A DNA stretch of 64,000 nt from Deltaproteobacteria bacterium (GCA_046583355.1 JAYGCM010000010.1:1-64000); one strand, 5' to 3'. Shown: positions 5,541 through 34,781, numbered from the stretch's first letter. The notes: generated from the sequence alone by a model not told the origin. Numbers and translations are program-made.

Positions 5541-7240
5541 GGAAAATTTCGCGTCAGGCATATGCCGAGCTCTACGGTCCGACGGTTGGCGATCGTGTCC
5601 GTCTGGCGGATACCGAACTCTTCGTCGAGGTCGAAAAGGACCATACCTCCTACGGCGACGAGGTGAGCTTCGGAGGCGGCAAGGTGATCCGCGACGGGAT
5701 GGGCCAGAGCCAGAGAATCAGCGCGGATGCCGTCGACCTGGTTCTGACCAATGCCCTGATCATCGACCATTGGGGTATCGTCAAGGCCGATATCGGCGTG
5801 AAAGATGGGCGGATCGCCGCAATCGGCAAGGCGGGCAACCCCGATACGCAAGATGGTGTCGATATCGTCCTGGGACCATGCACCGAGGTTCTGGCGGCCG
5901 AAGGCAAGATCGTGACAGCAGGGGCCCTCGATGCGCATATCCACTTCATCTGCCCACAGCAGGTCGAGGAGGCACTTGCCTCGGGCGTCACCACGATGCT
6001 CGGTGGTGGTACGGGGCCGGCCACGGGCACCAACGCGACGACCTGTACGCCGGGGCCGTGGAATATCCACCGAATGCTCGAAGCGGCCGATGCCCTGCCG
6101 ATGAATCTCGGTTTTCTCGGCAAGGGAAATGCGAGCCTGCCGGCGGCGCTCGAGGAGCAACTCGAAGCCGGCGCGATGGGACTCAAGCTGCACGAGGATT
6201 GGGGTACGACACCGTCGGCGATCGACAATTGCCTCTCGGTTGCCGAGCGCTACGACGTGCAGGTGGCGATCCATACCGACACGCTCAACGAGTCGGGCTT
6301 CGTGGAGGATACCCTGGCGGCGATCGGTGATCGGGCGATCCATACCTACCACACTGAAGGCGCCGGCGGCGGTCATGCGCCGGACATCATCCGTGCCTGC
6401 GGCGAGGCGAATATCCTGCCGTCCAGTACCAACCCGACGCGACCCTATACCGTGAACACGATCGATGAACATCTCGATATGCTCATGGTCTGCCACCATC
6501 TCTCTCCTTCGATTCCCGAAGACGTGGCGTTCGCCGAGTCGCGTATCCGGCGCGAGACAATTGCGGCCGAGGATATTCTGCATGACCTCGGCGCTTTTTC
6601 GATGATTGCTTCGGACTCGCAGGCGATGGGGCGCGTGGGCGAGGTGATCTGCCGTACCTGGCAGACGGCGCATAAGATGAAGGTGCAGCGCGGCAGCCTG
6701 GATGGCGATCCGGCTCGCCATGACAACGGCCGTGTCAAGCGCTATATAGCGAAATATACGATCAACCCGGCGCTCACCCACGGGATTGCGCATGAGGTCG
6801 GATCGATCGAGAAGGGGAAGCTGGCCGACCTGGTTCTGTGGGACCCTGCCTTTTTCGGCGTGAAGCCGAGTGTGATCGTCAAAGGGGGCTTGATCATCGC
6901 AGCCACGATGGGAGATCCGAATGCATCGATTCCCACGCCGCAGCCGGTGCATTTTCGACCGATGTTCGGCTCCCTCGGCCGCGCGCGCAACTCGACCTGT
7001 ACCACCTTTGTCTCCGCGGCGGCGCGCCGGGCTGGTGTCCCGGAGGCATTGCGGCTGCAGAACCGTATTGTCGAGGTCCGCGACACGCGCGCCATTCGCA
7101 AGAAGGATCTGATCCACAACAGCTGGCAGCCGCGGATCGAGGTCGACTCGCGGACCTACGAGGTGCGCGCCGATGGCGAGCTGCTCACCTGTGAACCGGC
7201 AACCGAGCTGCCCCTGGCGCAGCGCTACTTTCTTTTCTGA
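5537..7240 (+). CDS. ureC: Urease alpha subunit
   Basis: Nickel-site motifs [36 protein letters not shown] and flap MVCHHL. Ends LAQRYFLF. Confidence 0.99.
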
Positions 7241-7252
7241 GATTGAGGATTG

Positions 7253-7723
7253 ATGCTGAACCTGACGGAAAAATGTGCCGCGACGAAGGCGTTCGACAGG
7301 ACGCTTACCTTGTCGTTCGAGCGCAGGCAGAAGAGCCGGCAACGTGTCCGCCTCGATGACGGCGGCGAGGCCGCGATCGTACTCGCTCCGGGCTTGTCGC
7401 TGGCCGAAGGTGACCATCTGCGCGCGAGTGACGGCACGATCGTTCGGGTGCATGCCGGCCCCGAGGCGGTGACGGTTGCCTGTGCGGGGGATCCTCTTTT
7501 GCTTGCGCGTGCCTGCTACCATCTCGGCAACCGCCACGTCGCTTTGCAGGTCGGCGAGGGCTGGGTGCGCTATCAGCCTGATCACGTCCTGGATGCGATG
7601 GTCGTGGGGCTCGGGCTCGCGGTGACGCATGAGAATCTGCCCTTCGAGCCCGAGGGGGGTGCCTACGGTGGACAGCGCTTGGGCGGCAACGAGGGGCATA
7701 ACCATGCGCACGGCCATGGGTGA
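7253..7723 (+). CDS. ureE: Urease nickel chaperone UreE
   Basis: RQKSRQR, YHLGNRH, FEPEGGAY and a short His-rich tail HNHAHGHG. Confidence 0.95.
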   Translation: MLNLTEKCAATKAFDRTLTLSFERRQKSRQRVRLDDGGEAAIVLAPGLSLAEGDHLRASDGTIVRVHAGPEAVTVACAGDPLLLARACYHLGNRHVALQVGEGWVRYQPDHVLDAMVVGLGLAVTHENLPFEPEGGAYGGQRLGGNEGHNHAHGHG

Positions 7724-8393
7724 CCCCGGGACACCGCTGGTGCGGATGTTGCAACTTGCCAGTGCCGCTCTCCCGGTCGGTTCGTTCGCGTATTCGCAGG
7801 GGCTCGAATTTGCTGTCGAGGCACAGTGGGTGGTCGATGAGGCGAGTCTCGAGCGCTGGCTTGCCGAGCAGATGCGCTACGGGGTCGCCCGCGTCGATCT
7901 GCCGATGCTGGCGCGATTGATCGCGGCGACGCGCCGCGGAGATCGCCCGGAGCAAGCCCGGCTCGGCGCGACGCTGATTGCGATGCGTGAGACGAGTGAG
8001 CTGGTCGCCGACGATTGCGCACGCGGGCGCGCGCTTGCGCGCCTGCTCGGTGATCTCGATGTGGCCGGCGCCCGCTTCTGGCTGGACCAGGCGGAGATCC
8101 CCTATGCCGGGCCGATGGCCGCCGCTTTTGTCGCCTTCGATATCGCTTTGTCGCCCGCGCTCGAGATCTACGCTTGGAGTTGGCTGGAGAATCAGATCCT
8201 GGCCGGCGTGAAACTGGTCCCGCTCGGTCAGGTGGCCGGCCAGCGACTCCTCCTTGAACTGGGCGGCGGGATCGCGGAATTATGCACCGAGGCGCTGGGG
8301 CGCGGCGACGAAGAATTGGGTGGCACGTTGCCGATCGTGGCGCTCGCGAGCAGCCTGCATGAGACGCAATACACGCGCCTCTTTCGTTCGTGA
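7716..8393 (+). CDS. ureF: Urease accessory protein UreF
   Basis: LPVGSFAYSQGLE, VKLVPLGQ, HETQYTRLFRS. Start set at ATG 7716. Confidence 0.95.
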   Translation: MGDPGTPLVRMLQLASAALPVGSFAYSQGLEFAVEAQWVVDEASLERWLAEQMRYGVARVDLPMLARLIAATRRGDRPEQARLGATLIAMRETSELVADDCARGRALARLLGDLDVAGARFWLDQAEIPYAGPMAAAFVAFDIALSPALEIYAWSWLENQILAGVKLVPLGQVAGQRLLLELGGGIAELCTEALGRGDEELGGTLPIVALASSLHETQYTRLFRS

Positions 8394-8420
8394 CGGTTGA
8401 ACAAGAAGGAGAATCATCGA

Positions 8421-9043
<623 letters not shown>

Positions 9044-9044
<1 letters not shown>

Positions 9045-9690: not shown

Positions 9691-9806
9691 ATTTTTGGTA
9701 GATCCGCGTGCCGGGCGGAAGCTGGCCGGGGATTGATTTCCGGCCGGTTTCGCGGGAGATGAAGAGGGAGCGGCGCCCGCCAGGTGGGGGTGCGAAGGAG
9801 GGGTGG

Positions 9807-10367
9807 TTGCGGGTTCTGGGAATTGATCCGGGTTCGAGGCTTACGGGGTTTGGTGTGGTCGAGCAGCAGGGGCGCGCTTTGCGCGCGCTTGCGCATGGGG
9901 TCGTTCGGCCCGGCGCCGGCGATCTGGCTGCGCGGCTGGCTTCCCTGGTCAGCGGAATCGAGGCGGTTGTCGAGGAATGGCAGCCCGAGGTGATTGCGCT
10001 TGAATGTGCCTTTGTCGGCAAGAGTATGTCGAGCGCGCTGCGGCTGGGCGAGGTGCGCGGTGCGTTTCTCGCTTTTGCCGGTGGGCGTGGCCTGCCGGTT
10101 TTCGACTATCCGCCTGCCACCGTGAAGCTCACGGTGGCGGGTATCGGCAATGCCACCAAGGCAGTCGTGGCCCGGGCGGTTGCGGGAACGCTCGGTGGTA
10201 GCCACGATCCTGGGGATGCCGCCGATGCCCTCGCTGTCGCCCTTTGCCATCTTCAGCAGGGGAGCTTTCGCTCTCGCGTCGTTGAGGTCGGGCCGCGCCG
10301 CGGCCGGATCCAACAAGCCGCCTCGCGCCTGCCGCCCGGAGCCCGCTTTGTCCGCGTGTCGCGCTGA
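9807..10367 (+). CDS. ruvC: Holliday junction resolvase RuvC
   Basis: RVLGIDPGSRLTGFG, ALE, G-N-A-T-K, DAADALAVALCH. TTG 9807 follows GAAGGAG. Confidence 0.93.
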   Translation: MRVLGIDPGSRLTGFGVVEQQGRALRALAHGVVRPGAGDLAARLASLVSGIEAVVEEWQPEVIALECAFVGKSMSSALRLGEVRGAFLAFAGGRGLPVFDYPPATVKLTVAGIGNATKAVVARAVAGTLGGSHDPGDAADALAVALCHLQQGSFRSRVVEVGPRRGRIQQAASRLPPGARFVRVSR

Positions 10368-10382
10368 GTCGGGAGGCCCCTC

Positions 10383-10976
10383 TTGATCGGCGGCCTGCGC
10401 GGCAAGGTCGCGCGCAAAAGCCCGGGGCTTGTGCTGGTCGATTGCGGCGGCGTGCTCTACGAGGTCACGGTCTCTTTGCAGGCCTTCGCGGCTTTGCCGG
10501 CGGCGGGCGAGGCAGTCGAGATCGATATCATCACGCATGTGCGCGAAGACGTCCTGCAACTCTTCGGCTTTCTCGACGCGGCTGAGAAGACGGTTTTTCA
10601 TTGGCTGCGCTCGGTCAGCGGGGTCGGGCCGAAGCTCGCGATGAATATCCTCTCCGGCATGCCGGCGGCCGAAATCTGTGCGGCGCTTGCTGAGGGCGAG
10701 GCCGCGCGTCTGGTCAAGATTCCCGGGGTCGGCAAGAAGGTCTCCGAGCGTCTCGTGATGGAGCTGCGCGAGCGAGCGGCCAAGAGCGACCTGGCGGCCG
10801 AGGTCGGCGTTGCTGGAGATGCCGACGGGCGGGGGCCGGCGGATGAAGAGGCTCTCTCGGTTTTGGTGAATCTCGGCTACAAGAAGGCCGAGGCAGAGCG
10901 CGTCCTCCGGGCCGTGCCCAAGGGGCTCCCCCTCGAGGAGCTGCTGCGGGAGGCGCTGCGTGGTTTCGCGAAATGA
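10383..10976 (+). CDS. ruvA: Holliday junction branch migration protein RuvA
   Basis: MIGGLRG, HVRED, HhH motifs VSGVGPK and IPGVGKK, LVNLGY. Confidence 0.97.
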
Positions 10977-12007
10977 GCGAAGATTCGGAAGAAAGAGCGG
11001 TAGCGCCTGAAGAAGGCGATGCGGAGGTCTCCTTTGAGGCCTCGTTGCGGCCCGAGACTCTGCGCGATTATGTCGGCCAGGATCCCATCTGCGAGCGGCT
11101 CGGGGTGGCGATCGAGGCGGCGCGCAAACGCGGGGACGCGCTCGACCATATCCTTCTGGCCGGGCCACCGGGGCTGGGCAAGACCTCGCTGGCGCAGATC
11201 ATCGCGCGCGAGATGGGGGTTGCGTGCCGGCGCACGCAGGGGCCGGCCATTGAGCGCGGCGGCGATCTCGCGGCATTGCTCTCGGACCTGCAGGCGGGCG
11301 ACGTTCTTTTTATTGATGAGATTCACGGTCTGTCGAGCAAGATCGAAGAGATTCTCTACCCGGCCATGGAAGATTTCGAGCTCGACCTGATCGTCGGGCA
11401 GGGGCCTTCGGCGCGCAGTATGCGGCTCAAGCTGCAGCCCTTCACGCTGGTGGGTGCGACGACGCGCTCGGGTAGCCTGAATGCGCCGCTGCGCGATCGC
11501 TTCGGTACGAGCTTTCGGCTCGAGTTCTACGATACCGACTCGCTGGCGAAGATCGTCCAGCGTTCGGCCGGGATTCTGCGCCTGGATCTTGCGCCCGACG
11601 GTGCCTATGAAATCGCGCGGCGCTCGCGCGGTACGCCGCGCATCGCCAATAGGCACCTCAAATGGGTGCGGGATTTTTCTCAGGTACACCACGATGGCGC
11701 GAAGGTCTCGGCGCAGATCGCCTCGGACGCACTCTTGCTGCACCAGGTCGATGCCTCCGGGCTCGACACGATGGATCATGCCATCCTGCGCGTGATCGTC
11801 GAGCGTTTCGATGGCGGGCCGGTGGGCATCGAGAGCCTCGCCGCGATGCTGGCCGAGGCGCGCGAGACGATCGAATACGTCTATGAGCCATTTCTTGTGC
11901 AACGCGGCTATCTCGCGCGGACGCCGCGCGGTCGGGTCGCCACGGCGATGGCCTACGAGCTGCTGGGGCTGGATGCGCCACCGCCGGGGCAGGGGCGGCT
12001 GCTTTGA
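10973..12007 (+). CDS. ruvB: Holliday junction DNA helicase RuvB
   Basis: [42 protein letters not shown]. Confidence 0.98.
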
Positions 12008-14265
12008 GCGAAGAGCCCGAAGACGAAGAAGAGGGCAAAGGGAGTGGTCGCTCCTGGCGCCGTCGCGAGGCCTCGTTGCTGGTCGCGGCCATTCTCGCGG
12101 CCTTCTTCGTTCTGATCTACGAGACGCGTCTGCCGCCCTTTACCTCGAGCCAGACGCTGTCGCAGAATGTCGTCTTCTTTCTCCTTATCAATCTCAATAT
12201 TGTGCTGATTTTGCTGGTCAGCTTTCTGCTCGGTCGCAATATTGTGAAGCTGGTGATCGAACGGCGCCAGCGCGTATTGGGCTCGCACCTGCGTACGCGG
12301 ATCGTACTCGGCTTTGTCGGGGTGGCGATCACGCCTGCCGTGCTGCTTTTCATCGTGGCGTTGGGTTTTATTCGCTCTTCGGTCGAGACCTGGTTCTCGG
12401 TGCAGGTCGAGAGTGCGCTCGAAGCCTCGCTGGATATGGCCGACACCTATTACCGGGAATCGATGTCGACCGCCGTGCACGAGGCGCGGCTGATCGCCAT
12501 TGGCATAGAGAAACGTGGCGGCGTGGCCGGCACCGAAGATAGCTGGCTCGCGGCCCGCGAAAAGGAAATGCAGGCCGCTTCTATCCGCGTCTATGGCAGC
12601 GAGGCCAACCTGCTCGGCAAGGCGGAGACGGCCGGGCTCACCGGGCCCTTGGCGGTCGGGCCGGAGGTGCTCTTTCTCGAGAACGCGATTGCCGGAAACG
12701 AAAGGACGCAGGTGGTCGAGCGCGGCGGGACGACCTTGCTGCGCGCGGCTGCGGAGATTCGTACCGCGGAAGGGGCGGTCAGCGGCATTGTCGTGGTCGA
12801 TGCCATCATTCCCCGCAGCGTTGCGCGGCGCCGCGACGAGATTCAGCAAAGTTATCGCCAATACAAGCAGTTGAGCCTGATGCGCCGCCCCCTGATCAAT
12901 AATTATATATTGACTCTGGTCCTGGTCTCGATGGTCGTGGTCTTCGGTGGTACCTGGCTTGGCTTTGCGATCGCTCGCAGCATTACCACGCCGATCCAGC
13001 GCCTTGCCGAAGGTACGCGTCGGGTTGCCGAGGGCCACCTCGACGAGAAGCTTGAGCTGGAATCGGGTAGCGACGAGATCGCGACGCTTTTGAGTTCGTT
13101 CAACCGCATGACGGCGAATCTCCGCAGTTCGCATTCTGCTCTGGCCGAGCGCCGGCGCGCCCTTGAGACGATCCTGGGCAATATCGCGGGTGGCGTTGTT
13201 TCGATTGACCGGCAGGCGCGCATCGAGACCGTGAACGAGGCCGCGCGCTCGATGCTCGGCATCGGCGACGAAGCTCTTGGCGTGCCGTTCCGGGATTGGT
13301 TCTCGAGTCCGCGTTATCTTGCAGTGCGCGAGATTCTCGCCGAACTCGACAAGCGGGCACAACGTGGCGAGTGGGATAAATTGCCGCCGCAACGCCTCTC
13401 GATCGAACACGAAGGCGCCGCGGTGCAGGTGGTGGCGACCGGGGTGGTGCTGAAAAGCGAGGACGGCAAATCCATCGGTGCCTTGCTCTTCTTTGAAGAC
13501 GTGACGGAAATCTTGAAGGTCCAACGGATGGAGGCCTGGCGCGAGGTCGCACGCCGCATCGCCCATGAGATCAAAAACCCGCTGACGCCGATTCAGCTCT
13601 CGGCGCAGCGCCTGCGCAAGCGCTATGCCGCGGATCTCTCAGGGTCGGTGCTCGATGAATGTACGCGGACCATCATCTCGGAGGTCGAGGTGCTGAAGAA
13701 CCTCGTCAGCGAGTTCTCGAATTTTGCCCGCATGCCGGCCGGGCCGCATCTGCCGACGGACCTGAATGAATTGCTGGGCGACTCACTCACGCTCTTTCGG
13801 GCGGCGCACCGAGGCGTGCAATTCCATTTCTCTGCCGATGCGAAAATTCCCGATCTGGATCTCGATCCGGGTGGGATGCGCCGGGTGATGATGAACCTCC
13901 TGGACAACGCGGTGGCTGCGTTGCCTCTGGGTTCCGATACGGAAGCCAAATCTGATGTGCCGGGAAGTGCATCGGAGAGCCGTGCTTCCGGCCAGGTCTG
14001 GGTGGCCACTCGGCTGGACGAGGCCAACGGGCATGTGCGCCTGGAGATCGCCGACAATGGCTCGGGCATGACAAGCGAGGTCAAAGAGCGGCTCTTCGAG
14101 CCCTATTTCTCGACCAAGGCCCAGGGCACCGGCCTGGGGTTGGCCATCGTGCAGACGGTGCTGGCCGACCACCGGGCCTATATCCGAGTTCGCGACAACC
14201 AACCGCGCGGCTCGCGTTTCGTGATCGAGTTTCCCGTGCGCGATACGGGCCCGGCGGGCGTGTAG
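12004..14265 (+). CDS. NtrY-type membrane sensor histidine kinase (TM helices, periplasmic region, HAMP, PAS, HisKA, HATPase)
   Basis: H-box [23 protein letters not shown] (His521), [26 protein letters not shown]-terminal TM helices and a GSHLRTR motif typical of NtrY. Confidence 0.92.
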
Positions 14266-14293
14266 GGGCGAGATCAGGTAAAGAAGGCGGACA

Positions 14294-15541
14294 ATGGGCA
14301 AGAAGATCCTGGTCGTTGATGACGAAGAGAAAATCCGTCAGAGCCTGCGCGGCGTGCTCTCCGATGAGGGCCATGTGGTCGTGGAGGCCGGTGACGGCCG
14401 ACAGGCCTTGGAAGTCCTGGACGCAGAGCAGCCGGATCTGGTGATTCTCGACGTCTGGCTCCCCGAGGTCGATGGCCTGACGTTGCTGGAGAAGATCAAG
14501 GGCGAGCACCCGGAACTGCCCGTCATCATCATCTGTGGGCATGCCAATATCGAGGCGGCCGTACGCGCCACCCGGTTGGGTGCCTCGGATTTCATCGAGA
14601 AGCCTTTCTCGATCGAGGCCATCCTCGCCTCGATCACGCGCGCGCTGGGAGACGCGGCCAGTGCCGATTCGGGCGAGCCTGCATGGAGTGGGGCGGTGGT
14701 CTCGGACAACGCGGACCTCGTCGTGCCGCAGAAAACCATCGGCCGTAGCGTGACGGCGAGTGGCCGCGGGCTACATACGGGCATCAAGACCGGAATCATT
14801 CTGCATCCCGTTCCGGCCGGCACCGGCATCCTCTTCCAGAGTCTGGCCACCGAGAAGTCCGTACCGGCACACGTCGATTTCGCCGACTCCACGGGCTACG
14901 CGACCACGCTTTTTCGCGGTGGCTTCGGCGCAAAAACCGTCGAGCACCTTCTCGCCACCCTGCAGGGCTACGGCATCACCAATCTCATGGTGAAAATGGA
15001 GGGCGAGGTGCCGATTCTCGACGGCTCGGCTGCGGTCTTCTGCGATCTGATCGAAGAGGCCGGTATTATCGAGCAACCCGGTCCGGGGGTTACGCCCTTC
15101 ATCGTGCGCGAGCGCCATGCGGTCGAGATCGGTGGCAATACGATTGTCGTCGAGCCCCATGACGGTCTTCTGATCGACTATACGCTGGACTACCCGGCTC
15201 CTGTGGGCATGCAACACTTTGTCTTCGACTTCACGGGTGTGGAATCCTTCAAGAAGGAAATCGCACCTGCACGGACCTTCGGCTTCGTGCATGAGTTCCG
15301 TCAATTAGTCGAAAATGGTCTCGCCGCGGGCGGGCAGCTCGACAATTGCGTACTCATCGGTGAGGACGGCGTGATCAATGGCGAATTGCGTTTTGAAGAC
15401 GAGTTCGTACGGCATAAAATTCTCGATATCATCGGGGACTTCGCGCTTCTCGGCCAACCGCTGCGGGCCCGGATTACCGCACGCGCTACCGGCCATCGTC
15501 ATAATGTCGCGATGGTGCGCGAACTCCTTGCCGCCGCGTAG
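14294..15541 (+). CDS. lpxC: Fusion of an NtrX-like receiver domain and UDP-3-O-acyl-GlcNAc deacetylase LpxC
   Basis: aa 1-118 are a REC domain (DD9-10, D53, K103-P). aa 146-415 are LpxC (QKTI, GxGLHTG, TVEH, EVPILDGS, EIAPARTFGF, RHKILDIIGD, GH). Single uninterrupted ORF. Confidence 0.95.
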   Translation: MGKKILVVDDEEKIRQSLRGVLSDEGHVVVEAGDGRQALEVLDAEQPDLVILDVWLPEVDGLTLLEKIKGEHPELPVIIICGHANIEAAVRATRLGASDFIEKPFSIEAILASITRALGDAASADSGEPAWSGAVVSDNADLVVPQKTIGRSVTASGRGLHTGIKTGIILHPVPAGTGILFQSLATEKSVPAHVDFADSTGYATTLFRGGFGAKTVEHLLATLQGYGITNLMVKMEGEVPILDGSAAVFCDLIEEAGIIEQPGPGVTPFIVRERHAVEIGGNTIVVEPHDGLLIDYTLDYPAPVGMQHFVFDFTGVESFKKEIAPARTFGFVHEFRQLVENGLAAGGQLDNCVLIGEDGVINGELRFEDEFVRHKILDIIGDFALLGQPLRARITARATGHRHNVAMVRELLAAA

Positions 15542-15556: not shown

Positions 15557-16459
15557 CTAAGAGAGTTTCGGCCGGCGCAGCGTGCCCTTCAATTTGTAGA
15601 AGGCATCGCCCTGCGTGCGTTTGGGCAGCAGCAGGGGGAGTGCGCGCAATCCGGCGGGGGCGTCTGCGTGGATCTGCAGCTCGAAGCGGATATCGAGTAT
15701 GCTGGATTCGAGCGGTTGCGCCAGCTGAATGCGGCCGGTCGCGCGCAGCGTAAGCTCGGCGCCACGGGCACTGAATTCCGAGATCTCGAGGCGTTTGCCG
15801 TCGAGCCTCGCCCGCAGCTGCACGCTCTCGAACGTAAGGTTCGGTACCTTGAAGCCTGCCGCCAGCAGGTCGCGCAGGCCGACCGCTGCGGCGTCCAGGC
15901 TCAGGGCACCGACCAATTCGCGACCACGGGGATCGCCTTCGAGATCGAGGGCAATCCGCGCCGTACCCAGTAGCGCTCCGCCGCCAGGGAAGAGGCCGCG
16001 CGTGGCTTCGGCCAGTTCGAGATTTTCGCCTTCGAGCGCGAGCAGGAAGCCACGCGGATCACCGGCCAGTCGGGCTTCGAGCACGCCGCCCCAGAGCCGG
16101 GCTTCGAGGTCGATAGCAGCGGGCGCGCCAGGCAGCAGCAGGCTGGTAAGGACCGGGGCTGCGTCGAGCGAATCGATGTGGATCGTCGGGCCGTCTTTGC
16201 CCTCGGGCAGGATCTGCAGGTCGCGGACGGTGTAGCCGAGCAGCGGGCGCAGCGAGAGTTCGCGGAATTCGATGCCGACCGCGCTGCTACGAGTGGCGCG
16301 CTCGATCAGCTGACGCGCGATTTTCTCATGCGGCAAAGTGGCGACCACGCCCACCACGAAGACGGCGAGTGTGAAGCAGGTATAGCCGATCGCCAGGCGG
16401 TGGCGGCCGAGCGCGTCGCGCAGGCCGGCAAAGGAGATAGAGCGTCGTGGCGATTTCAT
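15557..16459 (-). CDS. gspN: Type II secretion protein GspN
   Basis: N-terminal TM helix followed by TLP, a beta-rich body and C-terminal GTLRRP. Last gene of the gsp operon. Confidence 0.75.
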   Translation of the reverse strand: MKSPRRSISFAGLRDALGRHRLAIGYTCFTLAVFVVGVVATLPHEKIARQLIERATRSSAVGIEFRELSLRPLLGYTVRDLQILPEGKDGPTIHIDSLDAAPVLTSLLLPGAPAAIDLEARLWGGVLEARLAGDPRGFLLALEGENLELAEATRGLFPGGGALLGTARIALDLEGDPRGRELVGALSLDAAAVGLRDLLAAGFKVPNLTFESVQLRARLDGKRLEISEFSARGAELTLRATGRIQLAQPLESSILDIRFELQIHADAPAGLRALPLLLPKRTQGDAFYKLKGTLRRPKLS

Positions 16460-17022
16460 CGTGGCTGCAGGCGTGTCACGACGATCGTTGCGTCGAGAAG
16501 AGTCGGATCTTTATATTGTCTCTTGAAGCTCGTGCGGTCGACCTTCATGCCGGCCTGGCGGACCTCGATGGCATGCAGGAGCCGGATCAGGCGATGGCTC
16601 GAGATTCCCTCGAGGCGCATATCGATCGCTTCCTGGCGAAAGCCATCGTCGAGGTCGCGCGTGGTCGGGTTCATCGAGGAGATATGTTCGCGGCCGACCA
16701 CGGGCACAGTGAGCGACTCCAGCTGCGCGAAGAGCGAGTGGGCGGTCCCTTTGCCGGCCTTCTTTTGTAGCTTGCCTACTTCGGCTTCCAGGACCGCGTG
16801 ACGTTGCGCGAGTTCGGCGATGGCGGTGGCGTCGCGCCGCGCGATGCGCAGGTCGCGGTCGAGGCGCGCGAGCGAGTCCGTGAGTGGTTCGTAGATGCCG
16901 AGCCAGAGCAGCAGCACCAGGCTGATAGCGCCGGCGCCTTGGACCAAGCGGCGCTCGCGTACGGCCAGGCCATCAAGCCAGGTGCGGGCTTCTTCCAGGA
17001 GTAGGCGCAGGCGATCGCCCAT
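16456..17022 (-). CDS. gspM: Type II secretion protein GspM
   Basis: LAVRERR, a TM helix, a coiled coil and a ferredoxin-like C-terminus. ATG 17022 lies just after the gspL stop. Confidence 0.8.
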   Translation of the reverse strand: MGDRLRLLLEEARTWLDGLAVRERRLVQGAGAISLVLLLWLGIYEPLTDSLARLDRDLRIARRDATAIAELAQRHAVLEAEVGKLQKKAGKGTAHSLFAQLESLTVPVVGREHISSMNPTTRDLDDGFRQEAIDMRLEGISSHRLIRLLHAIEVRQAGMKVDRTSFKRQYKDPTLLDATIVVTRLQPR

Positions 17023-17023
17023 T

Positions 17024-18391
17024 TCAGCGATCCTCCGGGGCGAGGGTGGCGCGGAACTCGATACGGCCATCGACGCCGGACTTCACGTCCTGCACGCGTG
17101 CGGCGGCGAAGGCAGGCAGCGCCTCCAGACCGCGCGTGACGATATCGACCGACTCGAAGGTGTCGGTGCGGCCGCGGAAATGGATGCCGGTGTCGTCGAT
17201 GGTGAGTTCCACGATTTCGAGGGGGATCTCGCCGGGAATGGCTTGGTGGATCGCGAAGAGGTGGTCGAGAGTTCGGGCGCTGGCGGACCCGGCCCCACCC
17301 AGCATGGCGCTGCGTTTCTCCAATGCCTCCAATTTGGCCCGGACCCGGCGGACCTCCGTGCCGGGCACGGCCTTGGGTGCGATCTTCCGTGTCGCGCGGC
17401 TGATATCCTGGCGCAGCGCGCTGAGTTCCGCGCGGCGCTCGGCCACAACGACACCCCAGCTGCCGAGCAGGATCAACAGAGTGGCTGCCGCAATATAGAG
17501 CGTGCGACGCAATTGGCGCTGCGCTTCCTCGCTGGGTGCGTGGTAGGCGAACGCGCCATTGCGGAAATTCGGCAGCGCAGGATTGCTCTCCGCGGCCGCT
17601 GAGGCCAAGGCAAAGGCGCGCAGCGCCTCTGCCGGAACTGCTGCGGCCGGGCCGGAGAGTCCTTCGGCAAGCGGGCGTATGGGGTTGGCAATTTTTTTTG
17701 CCAGCGATTCGCAGAGTGCGTCGTCGCCCGTGAGCAGGATGTCGCGGGTCTCGTCATTCTGGAAGGCCGCCCCGGCCCAGGCAATCTCGCGCGCCAACTC
17801 GCTCGCGCCGCTGGCGCCGAAGCCATGCAGGCGAGTGATATGGCCGTCGTCGAATATAACGAGGCCGCCATTGTCCCGTGCCTCGAGCAAGAGAGTCGGC
17901 TTGGTCGGGGCGAGCAGGGCGGCCAAGGCGAGCGGGCCGATGGTGACCAGGGCCGGGTCGATGCCCGCCTCGCGCAGGAAGTCGATATGCGCTGCCATCG
18001 CGCTGCGCGAGGTGATGGCGGCGAGTACTGTGGTTTTCGGCCCGTTACGGTGGAGCACATTCCATGCGACGACGGAATCTTCCAGGTCGAAGGGGACCTC
18101 GGATTCGAGCTCGAAGGGGATGGTCGCGCGAAGCTTGGCCGCATCAGGGAAGGGGAGCTGCAGGATCCGGTGGCTGACGCTGGCACCGGGCAATGCCGTG
18201 GCGACCGCACCTGGACCCTCGGGGCATTCGCGCGCCAGGCTTTCGCGCAGCGCGGCGGCCAACTCGCCGCCGACCTTGCCCTCGACGCGCCAATTTTTAC
18301 GCAGCGCAAGCGTCCTGCCGGTACGCGCCACCAAGGAGAGCACGGCATGGTCCGAGCGGATATCGATCCCCAGCGAGAGCACGTTTCTCAA
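17024..18391 (-). CDS. gspL: Type II secretion protein GspL (actin-like cytoplasmic domain, TM helix, PilN-like domain)
   Basis: LGIDI, RILQLPF, IPFELESEVPF, PNFR before the TM helix. Start uncertain (18382, 18391 or 18433). Confidence 0.8.
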   Translation of the reverse strand: MRNVLSLGIDIRSDHAVLSLVARTGRTLALRKNWRVEGKVGGELAAALRESLARECPEGPGAVATALPGASVSHRILQLPFPDAAKLRATIPFELESEVPFDLEDSVVAWNVLHRNGPKTTVLAAITSRSAMAAHIDFLREAGIDPALVTIGPLALAALLAPTKPTLLLEARDNGGLVIFDDGHITRLHGFGASGASELAREIAWAGAAFQNDETRDILLTGDDALCESLAKKIANPIRPLAEGLSGPAAAVPAEALRAFALASAAAESNPALPNFRNGAFAYHAPSEEAQRQLRRTLYIAAATLLILLGSWGVVVAERRAELSALRQDISRATRKIAPKAVPGTEVRRVRAKLEALEKRSAMLGGAGSASARTLDHLFAIHQAIPGEIPLEIVELTIDDTGIHFRGRTDTFESVDIVTRGLEALPAFAAARVQDVKSGVDGRIEFRATLAPEDR

Positions 18392-18457
18392 CCTACCGGA
18401 TTCCGCTGAAAGTCCCAATTGCCGCGCAGGCATCTGGTTTTCGGCCGTACCTCCGGG

Positions 18458-19411
18458 TCAGCGGGGGCGCTCGGACCAGTAGATGCGTTCGAGTTTGTCG
18501 CCGCGGCGCCGCACCAGGGTCTCGAGGCGCTCGAGGGTATCGCCGATGCGGCCGGTAGCGTGGATACGGAAATACTCGCTGCGCCGCCCGTATTCGACGC
18601 CAACCGAGTCGGCGATATCCTCCTTGGCGCATACGTCCTCGAGCGGTAATTCCTCGCCGAAGCCTTCCAGGGGGAGGGGGTAATCTGCCTCGATCGCGCA
18701 GCCGATCACCTTGAGGACCAGCGCCGGAGCGGTATCGGCGTTCACGCCCTTATGGCCTTTCTTGCCGTCTGATCGGCGGTAGGCGGTTACAAAGGGGCGC
18801 AGCCGGGCGATGGTCTTTTCGTCGAAGCCGCGGATCAGACGCAATTCGTCCAGACTGCGCAGCGGGCCGCCGCGCGGCCGGCACGGCATGGCGAGCGCGC
18901 AGGCGCCGCTGGCAATGGCGCGCATACCCGCGTCCTGGTCGGCCGAGATCCAGGCATGGACGAGTTCGAGTAGGCCGATGTCGATATCGAGTTCCTCGAA
19001 GAGAGCCTCCAGAGTGTGGCGGTGCTTCTCGTCACCGACCTGATTGAGGTTCAGCTTCCCTTCCTCGTCCTCGATGCGGATCGAGATATCCCCGTCGCCC
19101 AGCGGCAAGACGACAAAGGAGAGTGGCAGCAAGGTGAGGCGGGTGGTCGGCTTGCGCTTGCGCAGGATCTGGCCGAGGTAGGCCGAGCCGCCTTCTTCGG
19201 CCGCGCGCGCAAGCAGGCGTGCGCCCGCCGAGTTGCCGCTATTGCGGGCGAGGTGACTATGCAGCATGGCCGATTCGGTGGTCTCGAGGACGATCAGGGT
19301 GAGCAATGCAACCGAGAGCAGCGCCGCCAGCAGCGCGACGCCGCGCTCGCTTTTGCCGATTCGCTGCGGCAGCAGCCGCCGCACGAAACCTGCCATGTCG
19401 AGCCTTTTCAT
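18458..19411 (-). CDS. gspK: Minor pseudopilin GspK
   Basis: ERG|VALLAAL, DEEGKLNLN, SLDELRLIRGF, VNADTAP, SEYFRIHA. Confidence 0.9.
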   Translation of the reverse strand: MKRLDMAGFVRRLLPQRIGKSERGVALLAALLSVALLTLIVLETTESAMLHSHLARNSGNSAGARLLARAAEEGGSAYLGQILRKRKPTTRLTLLPLSFVVLPLGDGDISIRIEDEEGKLNLNQVGDEKHRHTLEALFEELDIDIGLLELVHAWISADQDAGMRAIASGACALAMPCRPRGGPLRSLDELRLIRGFDEKTIARLRPFVTAYRRSDGKKGHKGVNADTAPALVLKVIGCAIEADYPLPLEGFGEELPLEDVCAKEDIADSVGVEYGRRSEYFRIHATGRIGDTLERLETLVRRRGDKLERIYWSERPR

Positions 19412-20046
19412 CGGGTCGGCCCCATCGGCAGGGTAACCAGGAGGCGGTAGACCTCGGGGGAATCGCTGCCGTCGTCGAGGGCGAGCGAGAGTCGCACGGC
19501 CCGCGGCAGGTCGTCGCGGCTGTCCGCCGCACTCCAGGTACGGACCCATTCGCGTGAGCGGCCGGGAAGAAGCTCGGCCGAGAAGCTGTGCACGCCGTCC
19601 AGGATGACGGCCGAGACGGGCTCAACGCCGGGTGCGGCGACCGAGGGAAGTTGTTCCTTGATGAGGACGCGCGCCCCCGGCACCCAGGGGTCATCATCCA
19701 GCCGGTAGTGGACGAAGGCGACCGGATCGACCAGATCCCCTCGCATCCGGCGGGCGGCTGTGGTGGCGAAGCGCAGCTCGCTTGCGGGAACCTCGAAGCT
19801 CCGATCGACGAGGAGGAAGCCGCCTTCCTCGCCGGCAATGGGAACGGCACCGGTCAGCTCCTCGGCCAGGCGCGCCAGCGTCGTGCGCGCCGCGGCCGTA
19901 TTCTCCATGCGTCGCTCGGCGTAGTCGCGTGACTCGAGGGTCTGCTGGAAGGGCCCGACCTGCGCGGCGAAGAGGATGCCGATGATGGTGAAGGAGACCA
20001 GAAGCTCCAGCAGCGTGAAGCCACGCTCGTCGCCAGCTACCGTCAT
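19408..20046 (-). CDS. gspJ: Minor pseudopilin GspJ
   Basis: RG|FTLLELLV prepilin motif and C-terminal LPRAVRL. Confidence 0.88.
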   Translation of the reverse strand: MTVAGDERGFTLLELLVSFTIIGILFAAQVGPFQQTLESRDYAERRMENTAAARTTLARLAEELTGAVPIAGEEGGFLLVDRSFEVPASELRFATTAARRMRGDLVDPVAFVHYRLDDDPWVPGARVLIKEQLPSVAAPGVEPVSAVILDGVHSFSAELLPGRSREWVRTWSAADSRDDLPRAVRLSLALDDGSDSPEVYRLLVTLPMGPTR

Positions 20047-20429
20047 CGCAGATTCCTCGAGACGAAGACGGTGAGTTCGACCGCGGCCTCTTCACCAAAA
20101 GATGGAGTGACGCGGATGCGGACCTCGCGGGTGCCGGGGAGGATCCACTCGCTCACCTCGCGCTGCCACACGAAGCCTTTTGCCTCGCCCGGCGTTGCGG
20201 CCTCGAAATCACCCTTGCTGGTGCCGAGGTCGGGCCAGCCCTCCAGTTGGGATTCGGCGGCCAGCGTCTCGGCCAGAAGGAGGGCGCGGCTATAGGCTTC
20301 TTCACGGCCCAGGGTGCGAAGGTTCTCGACGTGCAGACTCAGCAATGCCGTGAATGCCGTCGCGATCACGGCGAGCGCGACCATGACCTCCAGCAAGGTG
20401 AAGCCACGCTGGCTGAAACGCCGCACCAC
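20043..20429 (-). CDS. gspI: Minor pseudopilin GspI
   Basis: RG|FTLLEVMVALAV. GTG start after GAGGT. Confidence 0.88.
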   Translation of the reverse strand: MVRRFSQRGFTLLEVMVALAVIATAFTALLSLHVENLRTLGREEAYSRALLLAETLAAESQLEGWPDLGTSKGDFEAATPGEAKGFVWQREVSEWILPGTREVRIRVTPSFGEEAAVELTVFVSRNLR

Positions 20430-20434
20430 GAAGG

Positions 20435-20959
20435 CTACCTCATCCCCGCGACCGGGCCGTCGATCACACGCGGACGCGTGCGGGCCGGTTCGATGAGGAT
20501 CGAGACGATGCGCCCGGAGTCGTCGGCGATCTGGACGACCGTCGGGTCGACATAGCCGTCGGCGGCAAAGAGGACGCCGAGGCGACCGTCGGCGGTGGGT
20601 CGTGCGCCGGGTCCACCGAGTTGCAGAGTAAGCGAGTCGGGTAGCTTGAGTGGGCGGTAGAGCGGGCCTTCGCCGGAAACGAAAACCCATCCCTCCGGCG
20701 TCTCCACACCTTCTTCGGTGAGCAGCAGCTTCTCTTCGGGCAGGGCGACCAGGCGGATCCAGATGCCGCGGCGCGCGGCTTCTTCGCGCAGGTAGCGCAC
20801 GCGATTGGAGATGCGGCGGCTTGCCGTATCCAACTCGGCACCTGTCAGTACATCGAGACGCGGCAGCACCAAAGTGGCGAGCAGGCCGACCAGGGCCAGC
20901 ACCAGCATCAGCTCCAGGAGGGTGAAACCCCGCGCGCGGTTTTTGTCACGAATGGGCAG
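20435..20959 (-). CDS. gspH: Minor pseudopilin GspH (probable CTG start)
   Basis: RARG|FTLLELMLV lies upstream of the first ATG (20908). The best start candidate is CTG 20959 after AAGGTGG. C-terminal FAADG. Confidence 0.85.
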   Translation of the reverse strand: MPIRDKNRARGFTLLELMLVLALVGLLATLVLPRLDVLTGAELDTASRRISNRVRYLREEAARRGIWIRLVALPEEKLLLTEEGVETPEGWVFVSGEGPLYRPLKLPDSLTLQLGGPGARPTADGRLGVLFAADGYVDPTVVQIADDSGRIVSILIEPARTRPRVIDGPVAGMR

Positions 20960-20971
20960 ACGTCCCCACCT

Positions 20972-21406
20972 TCACCCCAAATCGCGGGAGTCGATATCGG
21001 CGTCCACGCCCTGGCCGCCCTCGATGCCATCGGCACCGAAGGAGAGCAGGAGGTAGTCGCGCCCGTCGCTCTCGTAGATGAAGGGCATATCCCAGGGGTC
21101 GGTCGGGACATTGTCGAGGTAGGCACGCCAGCGCCGCGCCTGTGGGCCACTACTCGGCTGGCGCACGAGCGCTTCGATGCCCTGGTCGGTCGTGGGGAAA
21201 TGCCCGTTATCGAGTTTGTAGAGGCTGAGCGCCTGCTCGACCGAGCGAATATCGGCGGCTGCCTTGGTCGCGCGGGCGTCGTCTGTGCGGCCCAGAATTT
21301 TTGGTGCGACCAGGGTGACCAGCAGGCCCATGATGAAGACCACGACCATGATCTCGATCAGGGTGAACCCGGCTTCTTTGCGCTGCTTCCAATTCATGAG
21401 ATTCAT
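20972..21406 (-). CDS. gspG: Major pseudopilin GspG
   Basis: AG|FTLIEIMVV, YKLDNG, PTTDQG, PTDPW, SFGADG, DADI. Confidence 0.97.
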   Translation of the reverse strand: MNLMNWKQRKEAGFTLIEIMVVVFIMGLLVTLVAPKILGRTDDARATKAAADIRSVEQALSLYKLDNGHFPTTDQGIEALVRQPSSGPQARRWRAYLDNVPTDPWDMPFIYESDGRDYLLLSFGADGIEGGQGVDADIDSRDLG

Positions 21407-21407
21407 C

Positions 21408-22613
21408 CTATCCGACAAGGGAATTGATTTCGAAAATGGGCAGGAGCACGGCCAGCACGATGAAGAGCACCAGGCCGCCCATCACTACGATCATGGCAGG
21501 CTCCAATATACTGGTGAGTGTGGCCAGGGCACCCTCGACTTCTTGCTCGTAGGCATCGGCCACGCGAATGAGCATGGGCTCGAGCTCGCCCGAGCGCTCG
21601 CCGACCGCGATCATGCGCACCAGGAGAGGCGGGAAGAGGCCGGTATCGCGTAGCAATTCACTCAGATTGCCGCCCTCACGTACGCCGATGCGGGCCAACT
21701 CAACCGCCGCGCCCAGGGCCGTATTGCCGGAGGTATTGCTCGCCAATTCCAGTGCTTCGAGCAGCGGGATGCCGCCTGAGAGCAGGGTCGCCAGCGTCCG
21801 CGAGAAGCGGCCGACCGCGATGCGTGTGAAAAGCGGGCCGAGTACGGGCAAGGTCAGGAGTTTATGGTCGAGCCAGAGGCGCCCGCCGGGTCGCCGCAGG
21901 GCTGTCATGGCCGCGATGATAGCCGAGGCGAGCAGCGCGACGACCAGCCACCACCATTCGGCGAGCGAATTGGATATGGCGAGCAGGAAGCGTGTCGGCA
22001 GCGGCAGCGACTCGTGCTGGTTGGCGAAAATCTTCGTGACTTTGGGCACCACGAAGCTCAGCAGGAAGAAGACGATCCCGCCGGCGACTGTGAACATCAG
22101 CACGGGGTAGGCCAGCGCATTGCGCACCCGCGCTTGCAATTGCACCTGTGACTCGGAGTAGAGCGCGAGGCGCTCCAATACGAGGTCGAGTGCGCCCGCG
22201 GCCTCGCCGGCGCGGACCATGCCGACAAAAAGTGGCGGGAAGGAGGCCGGATGCTCGGCCATGGCGTCGCCCAGGGCGCTGCCCTGGGTCACGGCGTCGC
22301 GAATATGGGAGAGGATGCGCTCGACCCCGGGGCGGTCGGTTTGCTCGCCAACGGCCTCGAGGCATTCGACCACCGGGATGCGCGCGGCCATCAGCGTGGC
22401 GAGTTGGCGCGAGACCAGGGCCAATTCGGTTGGCGTGATACGCGCCTCGCCGCTGCGCGCGCGCTTGGCTTCGGTCTCGCCTTCTTCGACCTCGGTCGGA
22501 AAAACGCCCTGCAGGCGCAGCTTCGTCCGGGCGCCTTTGGCCGAATCCGCCTCGACGATTCCGTTCACCTTATGGCCGGAGTCGTTCAGGCCCTGATACG
22601 CGAAAACGGGCAT
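21408..22613 (-). CDS. gspF: T2SS inner-membrane platform protein GspF
   Basis: MPVFAY, RQLATL, AGEAAG, ALAYP, VGERSGEL, LEP. Confidence 0.96.
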   Translation of the reverse strand: MPVFAYQGLNDSGHKVNGIVEADSAKGARTKLRLQGVFPTEVEEGETEAKRARSGEARITPTELALVSRQLATLMAARIPVVECLEAVGEQTDRPGVERILSHIRDAVTQGSALGDAMAEHPASFPPLFVGMVRAGEAAGALDLVLERLALYSESQVQLQARVRNALAYPVLMFTVAGGIVFFLLSFVVPKVTKIFANQHESLPLPTRFLLAISNSLAEWWWLVVALLASAIIAAMTALRRPGGRLWLDHKLLTLPVLGPLFTRIAVGRFSRTLATLLSGGIPLLEALELASNTSGNTALGAAVELARIGVREGGNLSELLRDTGLFPPLLVRMIAVGERSGELEPMLIRVADAYEQEVEGALATLTSILEPAMIVVMGGLVLFIVLAVLLPIFEINSLVG

Positions 22614-22671
22614 CGAGAGATTACGCTACCTGTTCCTTGTCTCGCGGTCGATTTCCATGGAATAGAAAAGC

Positions 22672-23133
22672 ATGTCCGCTGAAAATCCTTCATTCGTATG
22701 GTCGCTTCTGCTGGTTCTTCCGGCGCTGGCTCTTTTCTCCTGTGCCGGAACGCAGCCGGTCGGCCTCGGTGTGCACGACGGGCGGCTGCGCCCCTGTCCC
22801 GCCAGTCCGAATTGCGTCTGCAGCGAGGATGGGGATCAAGGCCACGCGATCGCCCCGCTGCATTTCACCGGCGACCCGCAGGCGGCTTTTGCCCGCGCCA
22901 AGGCGGCCGCTCTCACCTTGCCGGGGACGAAGCTGGCGGGCGAGACGAAGGACTTCCTGCACTTCGAGTCGACCTCGGCCCTGATGGGCTTCGTGGATGA
23001 CCTCGAATTGCAGTTGGTCCCTGGAAAGGACGAAATTGCTGTGCGCTCGGCCTCGCGGCTGGGCTACGGCGATATGGGAGTGAACCGCAAACGGGTCGAG
23101 GCATTGCGCGCCGCCTTTGCGGCCGCCGCATGA
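22672..23133 (+). CDS. DUF1499-family lipoprotein
   Basis: Lipobox LFSC, LRPCPASPNCVCS, GFVDDLE, RSASRLGYGDMGVNRKR. Confidence 0.88.
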   Translation: MSAENPSFVWSLLLVLPALALFSCAGTQPVGLGVHDGRLRPCPASPNCVCSEDGDQGHAIAPLHFTGDPQAAFARAKAAALTLPGTKLAGETKDFLHFESTSALMGFVDDLELQLVPGKDEIAVRSASRLGYGDMGVNRKRVEALRAAFAAAA

Positions 23134-23183
23134 GGGGATCGATCCGGGTCGCATCCCGCCCGCGAATCCAGCAAGATGGTTGG

Positions 23184-24113
23184 ATGCTGACCGCCAGATT
23201 CCTCCGTGCATTGTCCCTCTCTTCGCTGCTCTTCTTCGCCGCCTGCGGGGGCAGCGATGCGCCTGTACCAAGCGGGGAGATTTCCTGGATCGAGATCGAG
23301 GCCAACGGCTTTGTCTTCGACGCTCGCGCGGCCGGCCCCGAAGACGGCGAGCCGGTCATCCTTTTGCACGGCTTTCCCGAGACCTCGGCCGAATGGAAAC
23401 ACCAGCTCAGCGCCCTCGGCCTTGCCGGCTACCGCGCCATCGCACCCGACCAGCGCGGCTACTCGGCTGGGGCCAGACCGGCGGAAGAGAGCGCGTACTT
23501 CATGCCCAACCTTGGGAGCGACGTCACGGCAATCGCGGACGCGCTCGGCTTCGAGCGTTTCCATCTGGTCGGCCACGATTGGGGAGCAGCGGTTGCGTGG
23601 TTCGTTGGCGTGGCCAGCCCGGAGCGGCTTCTTTCGCTTAACCCGATCTCCGTGCCGCATCTCGATGCGTTCTCGAAAACGCGCAATGATCCGGAGTCCT
23701 GCCAGTATTCGGCTTCGGGCTATATCGATTTCTTCATCCAACCGAACTCACACGAGGTGATGCTGGCCGATGACGCGCGCTTCCTGCGGGGCATCTGGGA
23801 CGTCTCGGCGGCCGCGAATGTGGATGAGTATCTCGAGGTCTTCCAGGAACCCGGCGCGCTCAAAGCGGCTCTCGATTGGTACCGCGCCAATAGTCTGAGC
23901 GGTCCTTCGCCAGAGATCGGCCCGGTGACGGTACGCACGATGTACATCTGGAGCACCGGCGATACCGCGCTCTGCGAGGACGGCGCCTACCTGACGGGCG
24001 ATTACGTGGACGCACCCTATCGCTTCGAGATCCTCGAAGGCGTGAACCATTGGGTGCCCGAGGCCGCTGCGGAGCAGGTCTCCGCCTTGCTGCTCTCGCA
24101 CCTCGCTGAATAA
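23184..24113 (+). CDS. Alpha/beta hydrolase, epoxide hydrolase-like, with lipoprotein signal
   Basis: HGFP, PDQRGY, GHDWG nucleophile, WYRA, GVNHW. FAAC lipobox after ATG 23184 (alternative start 23130). Confidence 0.88.
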   Translation: MLTARFLRALSLSSLLFFAACGGSDAPVPSGEISWIEIEANGFVFDARAAGPEDGEPVILLHGFPETSAEWKHQLSALGLAGYRAIAPDQRGYSAGARPAEESAYFMPNLGSDVTAIADALGFERFHLVGHDWGAAVAWFVGVASPERLLSLNPISVPHLDAFSKTRNDPESCQYSASGYIDFFIQPNSHEVMLADDARFLRGIWDVSAAANVDEYLEVFQEPGALKAALDWYRANSLSGPSPEIGPVTVRTMYIWSTGDTALCEDGAYLTGDYVDAPYRFEILEGVNHWVPEAAAEQVSALLLSHLAE

Positions 24114-24142
24114 CTCGGCGGTCCTGGCGCTGCCTGGCCGGC

Positions 24143-24163
24143 CGCGCCCGGACTCCGGGCGCG
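24143..24163. terminator. Inverted repeat between convergent genes; possible terminator
   Basis: CGCGCCCGGA-C-TCCGGGCGCG, a perfect 10-bp inverted repeat with no U-tract. Confidence 0.45.
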
Positions 24164-24169
24164 CGACCC

Positions 24170-24427
24170 TCAGTCGGCGCTTTGTTGCTGATTTTCGAGT
24201 GGCTTCCAATGGAAGAGGCCGTAGATCATGGTCTGGACGAAATGGCCGCCCATCGAGCCGCCGGCCTTTTCCATCACGCTGCGTTTCACAAAGAATTCGA
24301 TGAAATGCGCGGTGAATGTGAGGCCGAGTACCCAGCGCGCCGCTGTCACCATCCAGCCGTCGGCGAAAAGCATCGCGAGGGCGGAGACCAGATAGAGAAC
24401 CCAGACACTGTTTTTAGCGTTGCTCAT
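24170..24427 (-). CDS. Small membrane protein, DUF1145-like
   Basis: 85 aa, hydrophobic, with AHFIEF and YGLFHWKP patterns. Confidence 0.65.
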   Translation of the reverse strand: MSNAKNSVWVLYLVSALAMLFADGWMVTAARWVLGLTFTAHFIEFFVKRSVMEKAGGSMGGHFVQTMIYGLFHWKPLENQQQSAD

Positions 24428-24469
24428 GGGTCGACTCTAGCGGCTCTACGAGCCGATCCGCAACGCGCT

Positions 24470-25522: not shown

Positions 25523-25586
25523 GGCGGCTCGTTTATCAGGAGTTCGGGCTCGGCGAAACGACTGGAGTCTTGAAAATCCTTGGGAG

Positions 25587-34771: not shown

Positions 34772-34781
34772 CCAGCGATTC

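Follow-up and report, generated by a model that had tools for sequence, protein, structure and literature searches.

The window, by which we mean the whole stretch of 64,000 nucleotides analysed, carries on its plus strand, at 14294..15541, a single open reading frame for a 415-aa protein (P0001) in which a response-regulator receiver is followed by LpxC, the committing enzyme of outer-membrane lipid A synthesis. Such a fused frame had been proposed in an earlier note made from this DNA alone, and it is borne out by the ORF call and by profile matches. Pfam places Response_reg at residues 5-114 (112 bits) and LpxC at 146-412 (273.6 bits, cut-off 27), and TIGR00325 (lpxC) scores 225.7 bits, with a cut-off of 187.25. 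The two halves are joined by 27 aa (residues 119-145; 14648..14728, plus strand), in line with the linker of about 27 aa described in the note. The linker has low pLDDT and high pN/pS, and its length varies across fusions (median 30 aa, range 24-63 in 182 of them).

The region 14650-14730, over which the note had wanted read support, lies within a 301-nt contig from another study (run X7), which spans 14467-14767, covers the whole linker and shows 0 differences from the window. Because this contig is independent, the junction was not created by assembly; as the fusion also recurs in many genomes, an assembly artefact has been ruled out. Near-identical DNA is present in marine metagenomes of two studies (P2 and P3), and in a plasmid collection 20 records match the fusion query, none of them over >80% of it. 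An internal start yielding free LpxC has been rejected as well, since such a start is not conserved in the 90 fusion loci compared. A start-type codon occurs within 12 codons of the LpxC start in 37/90 loci, and the same codon is accompanied by an SD-like word in 3/90; the window has a GTG at 14723, without an SD-like word. The note, too, had seen no plausible separate LpxC start with an RBS.

The LpxC domain (residues 146-412; 14729..15529, plus strand, as are all its residues below) has been delimited by Pfam, TIGR00325 and alignment to solved LpxC. E217/H218 (14942-14947) align with the TVEHL motif of the solved P. aeruginosa LpxC, H374 (15413-15415), K375 and D378 (15425-15427) form part of the HKILD motif, and H401 (15494-15496) falls in the GH motif of the P. 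aeruginosa enzyme. The alignment thus confirms the catalytic and zinc residues listed in the note (E217/H218, H374, D378, H401) as intact; their E. coli equivalents are presumably E78/H79, H238, D242 and H265. All six catalytic or zinc-site residues are kept in 218/218 near-full fusions, counted after partial sequences had been dropped. The P0001 model resembles A. aeolicus and P. aeruginosa LpxC (E ~1e-30, rmsd 1.4-2.5; 1.4-1.7 for A. aeolicus LpxC alone). Family score, active-site residues and fold agree, and mark this half as a predicted UDP-3-O-acyl-GlcNAc deacetylase. The second, stand-alone lpxC that the note had considered has not been found: in this genome (97.3% complete) nothing but the fusion matches LpxC.

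The receiver and its likely kinase

The receiver (residues 4-118; 14303..14647, plus strand; PF00072) is of the NtrX type, its best matches being NF051870 (NtrX), PDB 4d6x and PDB 5m7n. The acidic pair D9/D10 (14318-14323), the phospho-acceptor D53 (14450-14452) and the conserved K103 (14600-14602), all on the plus strand, stand where the note had placed them. The note had called the receiver complete, and in this it fails: the fifth residue, the Ser/Thr of the switch position, is replaced at the end of beta4 by Cys81 (TGT, 14534-14536, plus strand, motif IICGHA). Cys81 is found in 20/20 genomes of the family, and is also present in the run X7 contig. In the 218 near-full fusions, position 81 is occupied by Ser (140), Cys (74) or Thr (4), so the switch Ser/Thr is kept in 144/144 proteins outside the Cys group; D53 is kept in 216, and K103 in 217.

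A receiver in which any one of the five active-site residues is missing is called a pseudo-receiver in PMC12632262. With Cys81 in place of Ser/Thr, the P0001 receiver is, by that definition and on its sequence, a pseudo-receiver and not canonical. The same source adds that a receiver may still be phosphorylated when DD, T or K is substituted. Within the Cys81 family D9, D10, D53, G82, H83 and K103 are invariant, and the T+1 residue is small (G82), as expected of an accessible phosphorylation site. Both Cys codons are used at position 81, and T88A accompanies Cys81 in the family comparison. Mean identity in the family is 80% for the receiver and 80% for LpxC. Values of pN/pS are 0.50-1.51 for the linker versus 0.09-0.28 for the receiver and 0.14-0.32 for LpxC, and by this measure the Cys81 receiver is under purifying selection. 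In CheY, the T87C protein is reportedly phosphorylated, slow to dephosphorylate and poor at signalling. In this family Cys81 likely modifies, but does not do away with, the coupling or the phosphoryl-group lifetime. In the LpxC half of the same family H401 is directly followed by R402-H403 (15494-15502, plus strand), where other fusions mostly have S/G and then D/E, and 18 further positions are family-specific.

Against the full NtrX profile P0001 scores 130 bits (cut-off 600), and Pfam finds neither AAA+ nor HTH output domains in it. Though its receiver groups with NtrX, P0001 is, judged from its missing output domains, not an NtrX sigma54-type regulator.

Directly upstream, at 12004..14265 on the plus strand, lies the gene of a 753-aa NtrY-type membrane histidine kinase (NtrY_N, HAMP, PAS, HisKA, HATPase_c), with phospho-His521 at 13564-13566 (plus strand). 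Its H, N, G1, F and G2 boxes are intact, four hydrophobic segments are present, and ntrY is single copy in the genome. The 28-nt spacer separating it from the fusion gene (14266..14293, plus strand) reads as a purine-rich stretch before the ATG, and no promoter-like or terminator-like site has been called in it. The adjoining NtrY is likely the cognate kinase/phosphatase of the fused receiver. Farther upstream, ruvC-ruvA-ruvB (9708-12007, plus strand) run directly into ntrY, with a 4-nt overlap at 12004-12007, and 5537-9044 (plus strand) holds what we take to be the urease large subunit and accessory genes. On the other side a type II secretion cluster (15557-32310, minus strand) converges on the fusion gene; it includes GspC, D, E and M families, pilin-like and GspF-like ORFs, and unrelated ORFs inserted at about 22600-27100.

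Distribution and proposed descent of the fusion

The note had allowed that the fusion might be unique to this assembly. It has been found in other genomes of the class and in other phyla, and both Pfam domains occur in 119 of the best 120 homologues. Relatives at ~70% identity are named Candidatus Binatia, the likely class of these fusion carriers. LpxC is matched in 147/151 class genomes, and the fusion locus was inspected in 80 class genomes besides that of the window, with all 19 families covered. The receiver is in frame with LpxC in 77/80; in the remaining three the gene is split by a frameshift (G019 and G028) or cut by a contig end. As ntrY is also frameshifted in G019 and G028, the two split fusions are probably sequence errors. 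ntrY lies directly upstream of the fusion in 75/80, is lost to a contig end in four and is missing in one, and no stand-alone lpxC was seen across the 80 genomes. Outside the class, the fusion occurs in 10 of the 58 phylum genomes sampled, and among the named carriers are Syntrophorhabdaceae, Syntrophobacterales, Desulfomonile, an Acidobacteriota bin, Nitrospinota and Spirochaetota. The best 150 cluster representatives include 48 receiver+LpxC, 15 receiver-AAA+-LpxC and 5 partial AAA+-LpxC proteins.

The proposed descent begins with a single fusion of ntrX to lpxC, its target gene; afterwards the sigma54 AAA+ and HTH modules would have decayed and been deleted, the receiver being kept, and a transcriptional circuit would thereby have turned post-translational. 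Three states are found in present-day genomes. In the first the genes are separate: lpxC lies <=4 kb from ntrY in 14/48 unfused genomes, a lower bound since assemblies are fragmented, and ntrX adjoins ntrY in 43/46. In the second, fusions of 650-740 aa keep up to ~300 aa of decayed AAA+ between receiver and LpxC; GAFTGA, Walker B DE and the arginine-finger motif are lost in 18/18, and D53 and K103 are both kept in 17/18. The third consists of short receiver-LpxC fusions such as P0001. Two unfused genomes, G187 (L168/L189) and G163 (L165/L190), have ntrY and an NtrX-like gene far apart, unlike the 43/46.

Stand-alone NtrX, at a cut of E <= 1e-125 chosen by us, has been identified in 1/31 fusion genomes versus 46/49 non-fusion genomes, a contrast which may reflect one event, since the genomes are kin. 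The three non-fusion genomes without an NtrX match are also without an NtrY match. Where fusion genomes have ntrY elsewhere, the retrieved ntrY flanks hold no receiver gene (11/11; in one case the downstream flank is only ~300 nt long). The window's genome has no NtrX orthologue, its best full-length matches being paralogues with 43-46% identity. A strict sigma54 promoter pattern is found <=350 nt upstream of 0 fused genes and 10 unfused lpxC genes, a difference that says little, since the majority of fused genes come right after ntrY.

In a quick, unrooted tree of 85 rows, without an AU test, in which the distant unfused rows had been chosen by similarity to the query, a single branch (SH-aLRT 100) sets apart the 37 fused LpxC domains, all of them together; a contig-cut fragment adjoining a fused relative falls with them. 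This fits a single origin of fused LpxC. The fused receivers nest among NtrX receivers, apart from the other receivers of the window's genome, with weak support (81-87), and the receiver tree does not group all of them. Two genomes complicate the picture. In G210 an NtrX-like gene lies away from ntrY. G181 carries a free-standing lpxC immediately ahead of ntrY, gives no NtrX match, and has a divergent fusion at another locus (L121/L122; C11, C33). The G181 fusion is long-branched, with M replacing H161 along with further substitutions around the substrate site.

A regulatory link to lpxC is known in Desulfovibrio. D. vulgaris DVU2934, listed with GAFTGA (PMC4641369), has lpxC as its single target, and in S. 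fumaroxidans lpxC is directly upstream of the orthologous operon (PMC3333781). A mutant of the D. alaskensis kinase Dde_3000 raises lpxC alone (PMC4045070), so in the medium used there the kinase must hold its regulator down. Both lpxC promoter motifs printed for D. alaskensis in PMC4045070 were found in 1/401 genomes, G235, in front of lpxC. There, at a distance of 15 kb, the genes of a kinase, an epimerase-like protein, a second regulator (HD-GYP motif) and a sigma54 regulator follow one another, as described for the DVU2931/2933/2934 operon (PMC3333781; bioRxiv 10.1101/2021.11.05.467447). The G235 kinase and the window NtrY are reciprocal best hits (36-39% identity), and the receiver of the G235 regulator has P0001 as its best match in the window's genome (50%). 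By sequence comparison, the window kinase and receiver are orthologues of the lpxC-controlling pair of Desulfovibrio, which implies that the fused receiver stems from a system already devoted to lpxC. The orthologous pairs DVU2931/DVU2934 and Dde_3000/Dde_3003 thus share with P0001 the target enzyme; there, however, a full sigma54 activator acts on lpxC transcription, whereas P0001 has lost AAA+ and HTH, and its receiver belongs to the LpxC chain. The alphaproteobacterial NtrY/NtrX of R. sphaeroides and C. crescentus resemble the present system in NtrY domain order and in the NtrX-like receiver, but have a large regulon, an indirect transcriptional effect on lpxC and no fusion. In R. sphaeroides loss of ntrYX raises the lpxC transcript 8.8-fold, indirectly (PMC7240162), and LPS two-fold (PMC7240162, PMC12444477).

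We give even chances to the whole of this history, in which a transcription factor fused to its single target gene and then shed the parts that serve transcription, all intermediates surviving today, the Cys swap possibly providing a thiol input and NtrY being left with one output. If it is correct, this is a clear case of a regulator that joined its target gene and shifted its control from transcription to the protein level, and the intermediates still exist.

Predicted domain contact and proposed mode of control

A candidate docking site for the receiver emerged from comparing LpxC in 36 fused representatives with 100 unfused LpxCs. A fusion-specific patch occupies the first two LpxC strands (residues 152, 154, 164, 166, 167 and 169; 14747..14800, plus strand), and K234 (14993-14995, plus strand) belongs to the same signature. 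Hydrophobic residues are found at 154 in 94% of fused versus 10% of unfused proteins (the window itself has Thr), at 164 in 86% versus 17%, and at 169 in 100% versus 14%; G167 is present in 36/36 fused proteins, and K234 in 35/36, against Glu in 78/100 unfused ones. The patch positions alternate outward on the first strands, and are polar or variable when LpxC is unfused, conserved when it is fused. On the receiver side, the basic residue which NtrX has at 109, in helix 5, is lost in fused receivers.

AlphaFold2 folds the whole chain with pLDDT 90.1 and pTM 0.87, with pLDDT <50 at residues 121-129. LpxC alone covers a TM of ~0.62 of the model, and comparison of the two values indicates that the receiver is placed confidently. 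A control fold, in which unpaired NtrX receivers were combined with stand-alone LpxCs, gave pTM 0.54; its alignment had set the N-terminal LpxC half against the receiver, which voids it as a control. Covariation between receiver and LpxC (218 sequences, effective depth ~84) gave noise-like top pairs, the best inter-domain one being E87-E236. From the model and the patch we infer that the receiver docks on LpxC beside the GLH(S/T)G loop, which lines the substrate site.

The two halves could still be mere passengers of each other, the receiver signalling elsewhere or serving as a phosphate sink for NtrY while LpxC is constitutive. The variable linker (24-63 aa) and the ~300 aa of decayed AAA+ in long forms would suit such an arrangement, which would leave unaccounted for a fusion-specific LpxC surface conserved in short and long forms alike, the high whole-chain pTM (0.87) and the devotion of the orthologous Desulfovibrio regulator to lpxC only; we hold it to be highly improbable.

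The genome without ntrY among the 80, G142 (94% complete), has no NtrY match at E <= 1e-30, and its fused LpxC is the only copy found. At its locus (L216, C185:15100-21000) ruvCAB are directly followed by the fusion. The receiver keeps D53, K103 and the switch Ser, and E-P replaces G-H after the latter; the LpxC patch is kept. The G-H motif after the switch residue thus appears to be kept together with the kinase, to judge from this one case. Since G142 lost ntrY, its pocket decayed and the cell apparently lives, unphosphorylated fused LpxC is probably active enough. A sole LpxC that is fused yet has no ntrY is easier to reconcile with a rheostat than with on/off switching, and since the patch outlived the kinase, the docking may serve structure and the cell may not need the kinase.

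G142 also bears on the idea that the receiver is mainly a structural cap or pseudo-receiver, control being independent of Asp phosphorylation and exerted, for example, by thiol chemistry at Cys81. The Cys in 20/20 family genomes, the patch kept in G142, the loss of D53 in two distant representatives (P0145 and P0147) and the existence of redox-controlled Cys pseudo-receivers (PMC12632262) all speak for it. A pure cap, however, needs neither a phospho-pocket nor an adjoining kinase, and in the Cys family D9, D10, D53, G82, H83 and K103 are invariant, the NtrY boxes are intact, and the kinase adjoins the fusion in 75/80 genomes. We regard this explanation as unlikely.

Very unlikely is a third possibility, that the receiver tethers LpxC to membrane-bound NtrY, and that signalling changes the location of the enzyme and its access to acylated substrate. 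NtrY does have four hydrophobic segments, but kinase-receiver contacts are usually transient, the new LpxC patch would be left unexplained, and G142 manages without NtrY. A parallel exists in Neisseria, where recruitment of LpxC to the membrane by Ght has been proposed (PMC12444477).

The reading to which we accord somewhat better than even chances is that D53 phosphorylation, set by NtrY, tunes LpxC allosterically via a receiver docked on the first beta-sheet. The only lpxC found is fused to a receiver, just behind a sensor kinase, and so the kinase likely tunes lipid A at the enzyme and not at transcription. NtrY would set the phosphorylation state of Asp53, the predicted contact would be with the first beta-sheet of LpxC, and tuning would run through the beta1-beta2 hairpin bearing the GLH(S/T)G loop, not through a steric lid; control would be that of a rheostat rather than of an on/off gate. 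The CheB receiver blocks the active site of the enzyme domain to which it is joined. The patch lies instead on outward strand positions, which makes allostery more likely. As to polarity, NtrY loss raises lpxC in D. alaskensis and R. sphaeroides, so that the net role of NtrY is likely restraint; if the ancestral wiring has been kept, the phosphorylated form is the more active one. We lean slightly to this side, by analogy with D. alaskensis, with NtrY acting mostly as a phosphatase.

A receiver and a catalytic domain share one chain also in CheB methylesterase and PdeR phosphodiesterase (PMC12471899); their outputs are signalling enzymes, that of P0001 is a core biosynthetic one. Partner proteins are known to act on LpxC: LapB lowers its activity ~80% in vitro, MurA activates it in P. 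aeruginosa, and Ght in N. meningitidis is the proposed membrane recruiter (PMC12444477). LapB/YejM/FtsH of E. coli, MurA and Ght are separate partners and involve no phosphorylation; the likeness is that LpxC activity changes on partner binding. In LpxC-FabZ of Bacteroidetes, Chlorobi and Verrucomicrobia the partner is metabolic and C-terminal, not an N-terminal signalling domain, and this is the only LpxC fusion mentioned in the excerpts of PMC3087551 and PMC516016. The excerpted text of a 2025 review of lipid A regulation (PMC12444477) covers proteolysis, partner binding and transcription as modes of LpxC control, and contains none of the terms 'fused', 'fusion' and 'response regulator'; that of PMC12471899 does not contain 'LpxC', and that of PMC5007114 mentions no LpxC fusion. 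No published description of a receiver-LpxC fusion was found in full-text searches of mainly open-access papers, and census or domain-architecture tables may list it. The fusion is a variant of the enzyme-output response regulators, and would be an apparently undescribed route of LpxC control.

LPS synthesis is governed chiefly at LpxC, which is also a target for antibiotics. If the preferred reading, allosteric tuning by NtrY, is true, phosphorylation of LpxC itself would be a further kind of control, and an allosteric LpxC surface away from the catalytic centre would be revealed. NtrYX, a system with a disputed signal and core role, would be tied to lipid A; the fusion is the only NtrY partner left in these genomes, and an NtrY with one output would make its long-unknown signal testable by an enzyme read-out.

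LpxC turnover and lipid A genes

Phosphorylation could also set the amount of LpxC and not its catalysis, if the receiver exposed or hid a degradation signal in a manner analogous to LapB/FtsH control. The genome (97.3% complete) has no match to the YejM family (PF11893), and its sole match to the LapB zinc ribbon (PF18073) has been set aside as what we take to be RadA, not LapB; both results count in favour of the idea. P0001 ends in ELLAAA, and an Ala-Ala end, which resembles a ClpX-type tail, is found in 46/74 Cys-family proteins versus 5/107 others. The C-terminus, however, lacks conservation when all fusions are compared, the modelled tail prolongs the final helix, and the chain, which ends 3 residues beyond the LpxC domain, lacks the LAXXXXXAVLA degron of E. 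coli LpxC (PMC12444477). Control by proteolysis thus seems quite unlikely. With degron, LapB and YejM not found, P0001 is on sequence grounds outside the enterobacterial type of LpxC degraded by FtsH/LapB.

The other genes of the pathway are present: lpxA, lpxI, lpxB, an MsbA-like transporter gene, waaA and lpxK lie at 38388-47525 of the window, and lpxD on another contig of the same genome. They belong to an envelope cluster (33494-51564, plus strand) made of LolC/E-like and LolD-like ABC genes, bamA, a short ORF presumed from its position to be Skp-like, fabZ-lpxA, lpxI, an oxidoreductase gene, lpxB, msbA-like, DUF374, waaA, lpxK, and genes for an epimerase, a heptosyltransferase, a Kdo/WaaP kinase and a PfkB kinase; lpxC lies outside it. 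A second fusion of the same genome resides in this cluster, at the branch point of lipid A and fatty-acid synthesis: FabZ (FabA-like, residues 12-142) and LpxA (hexapeptide repeats and Acetyltransf_11) are encoded by one 423-aa ORF (38388-39659, plus strand), whereas the literature consulted names only LpxC-FabZ. fabZ and lpxA form a single frame also in G015, G006, G049 and G009, and are separate genes in G007 (4/5 fused).
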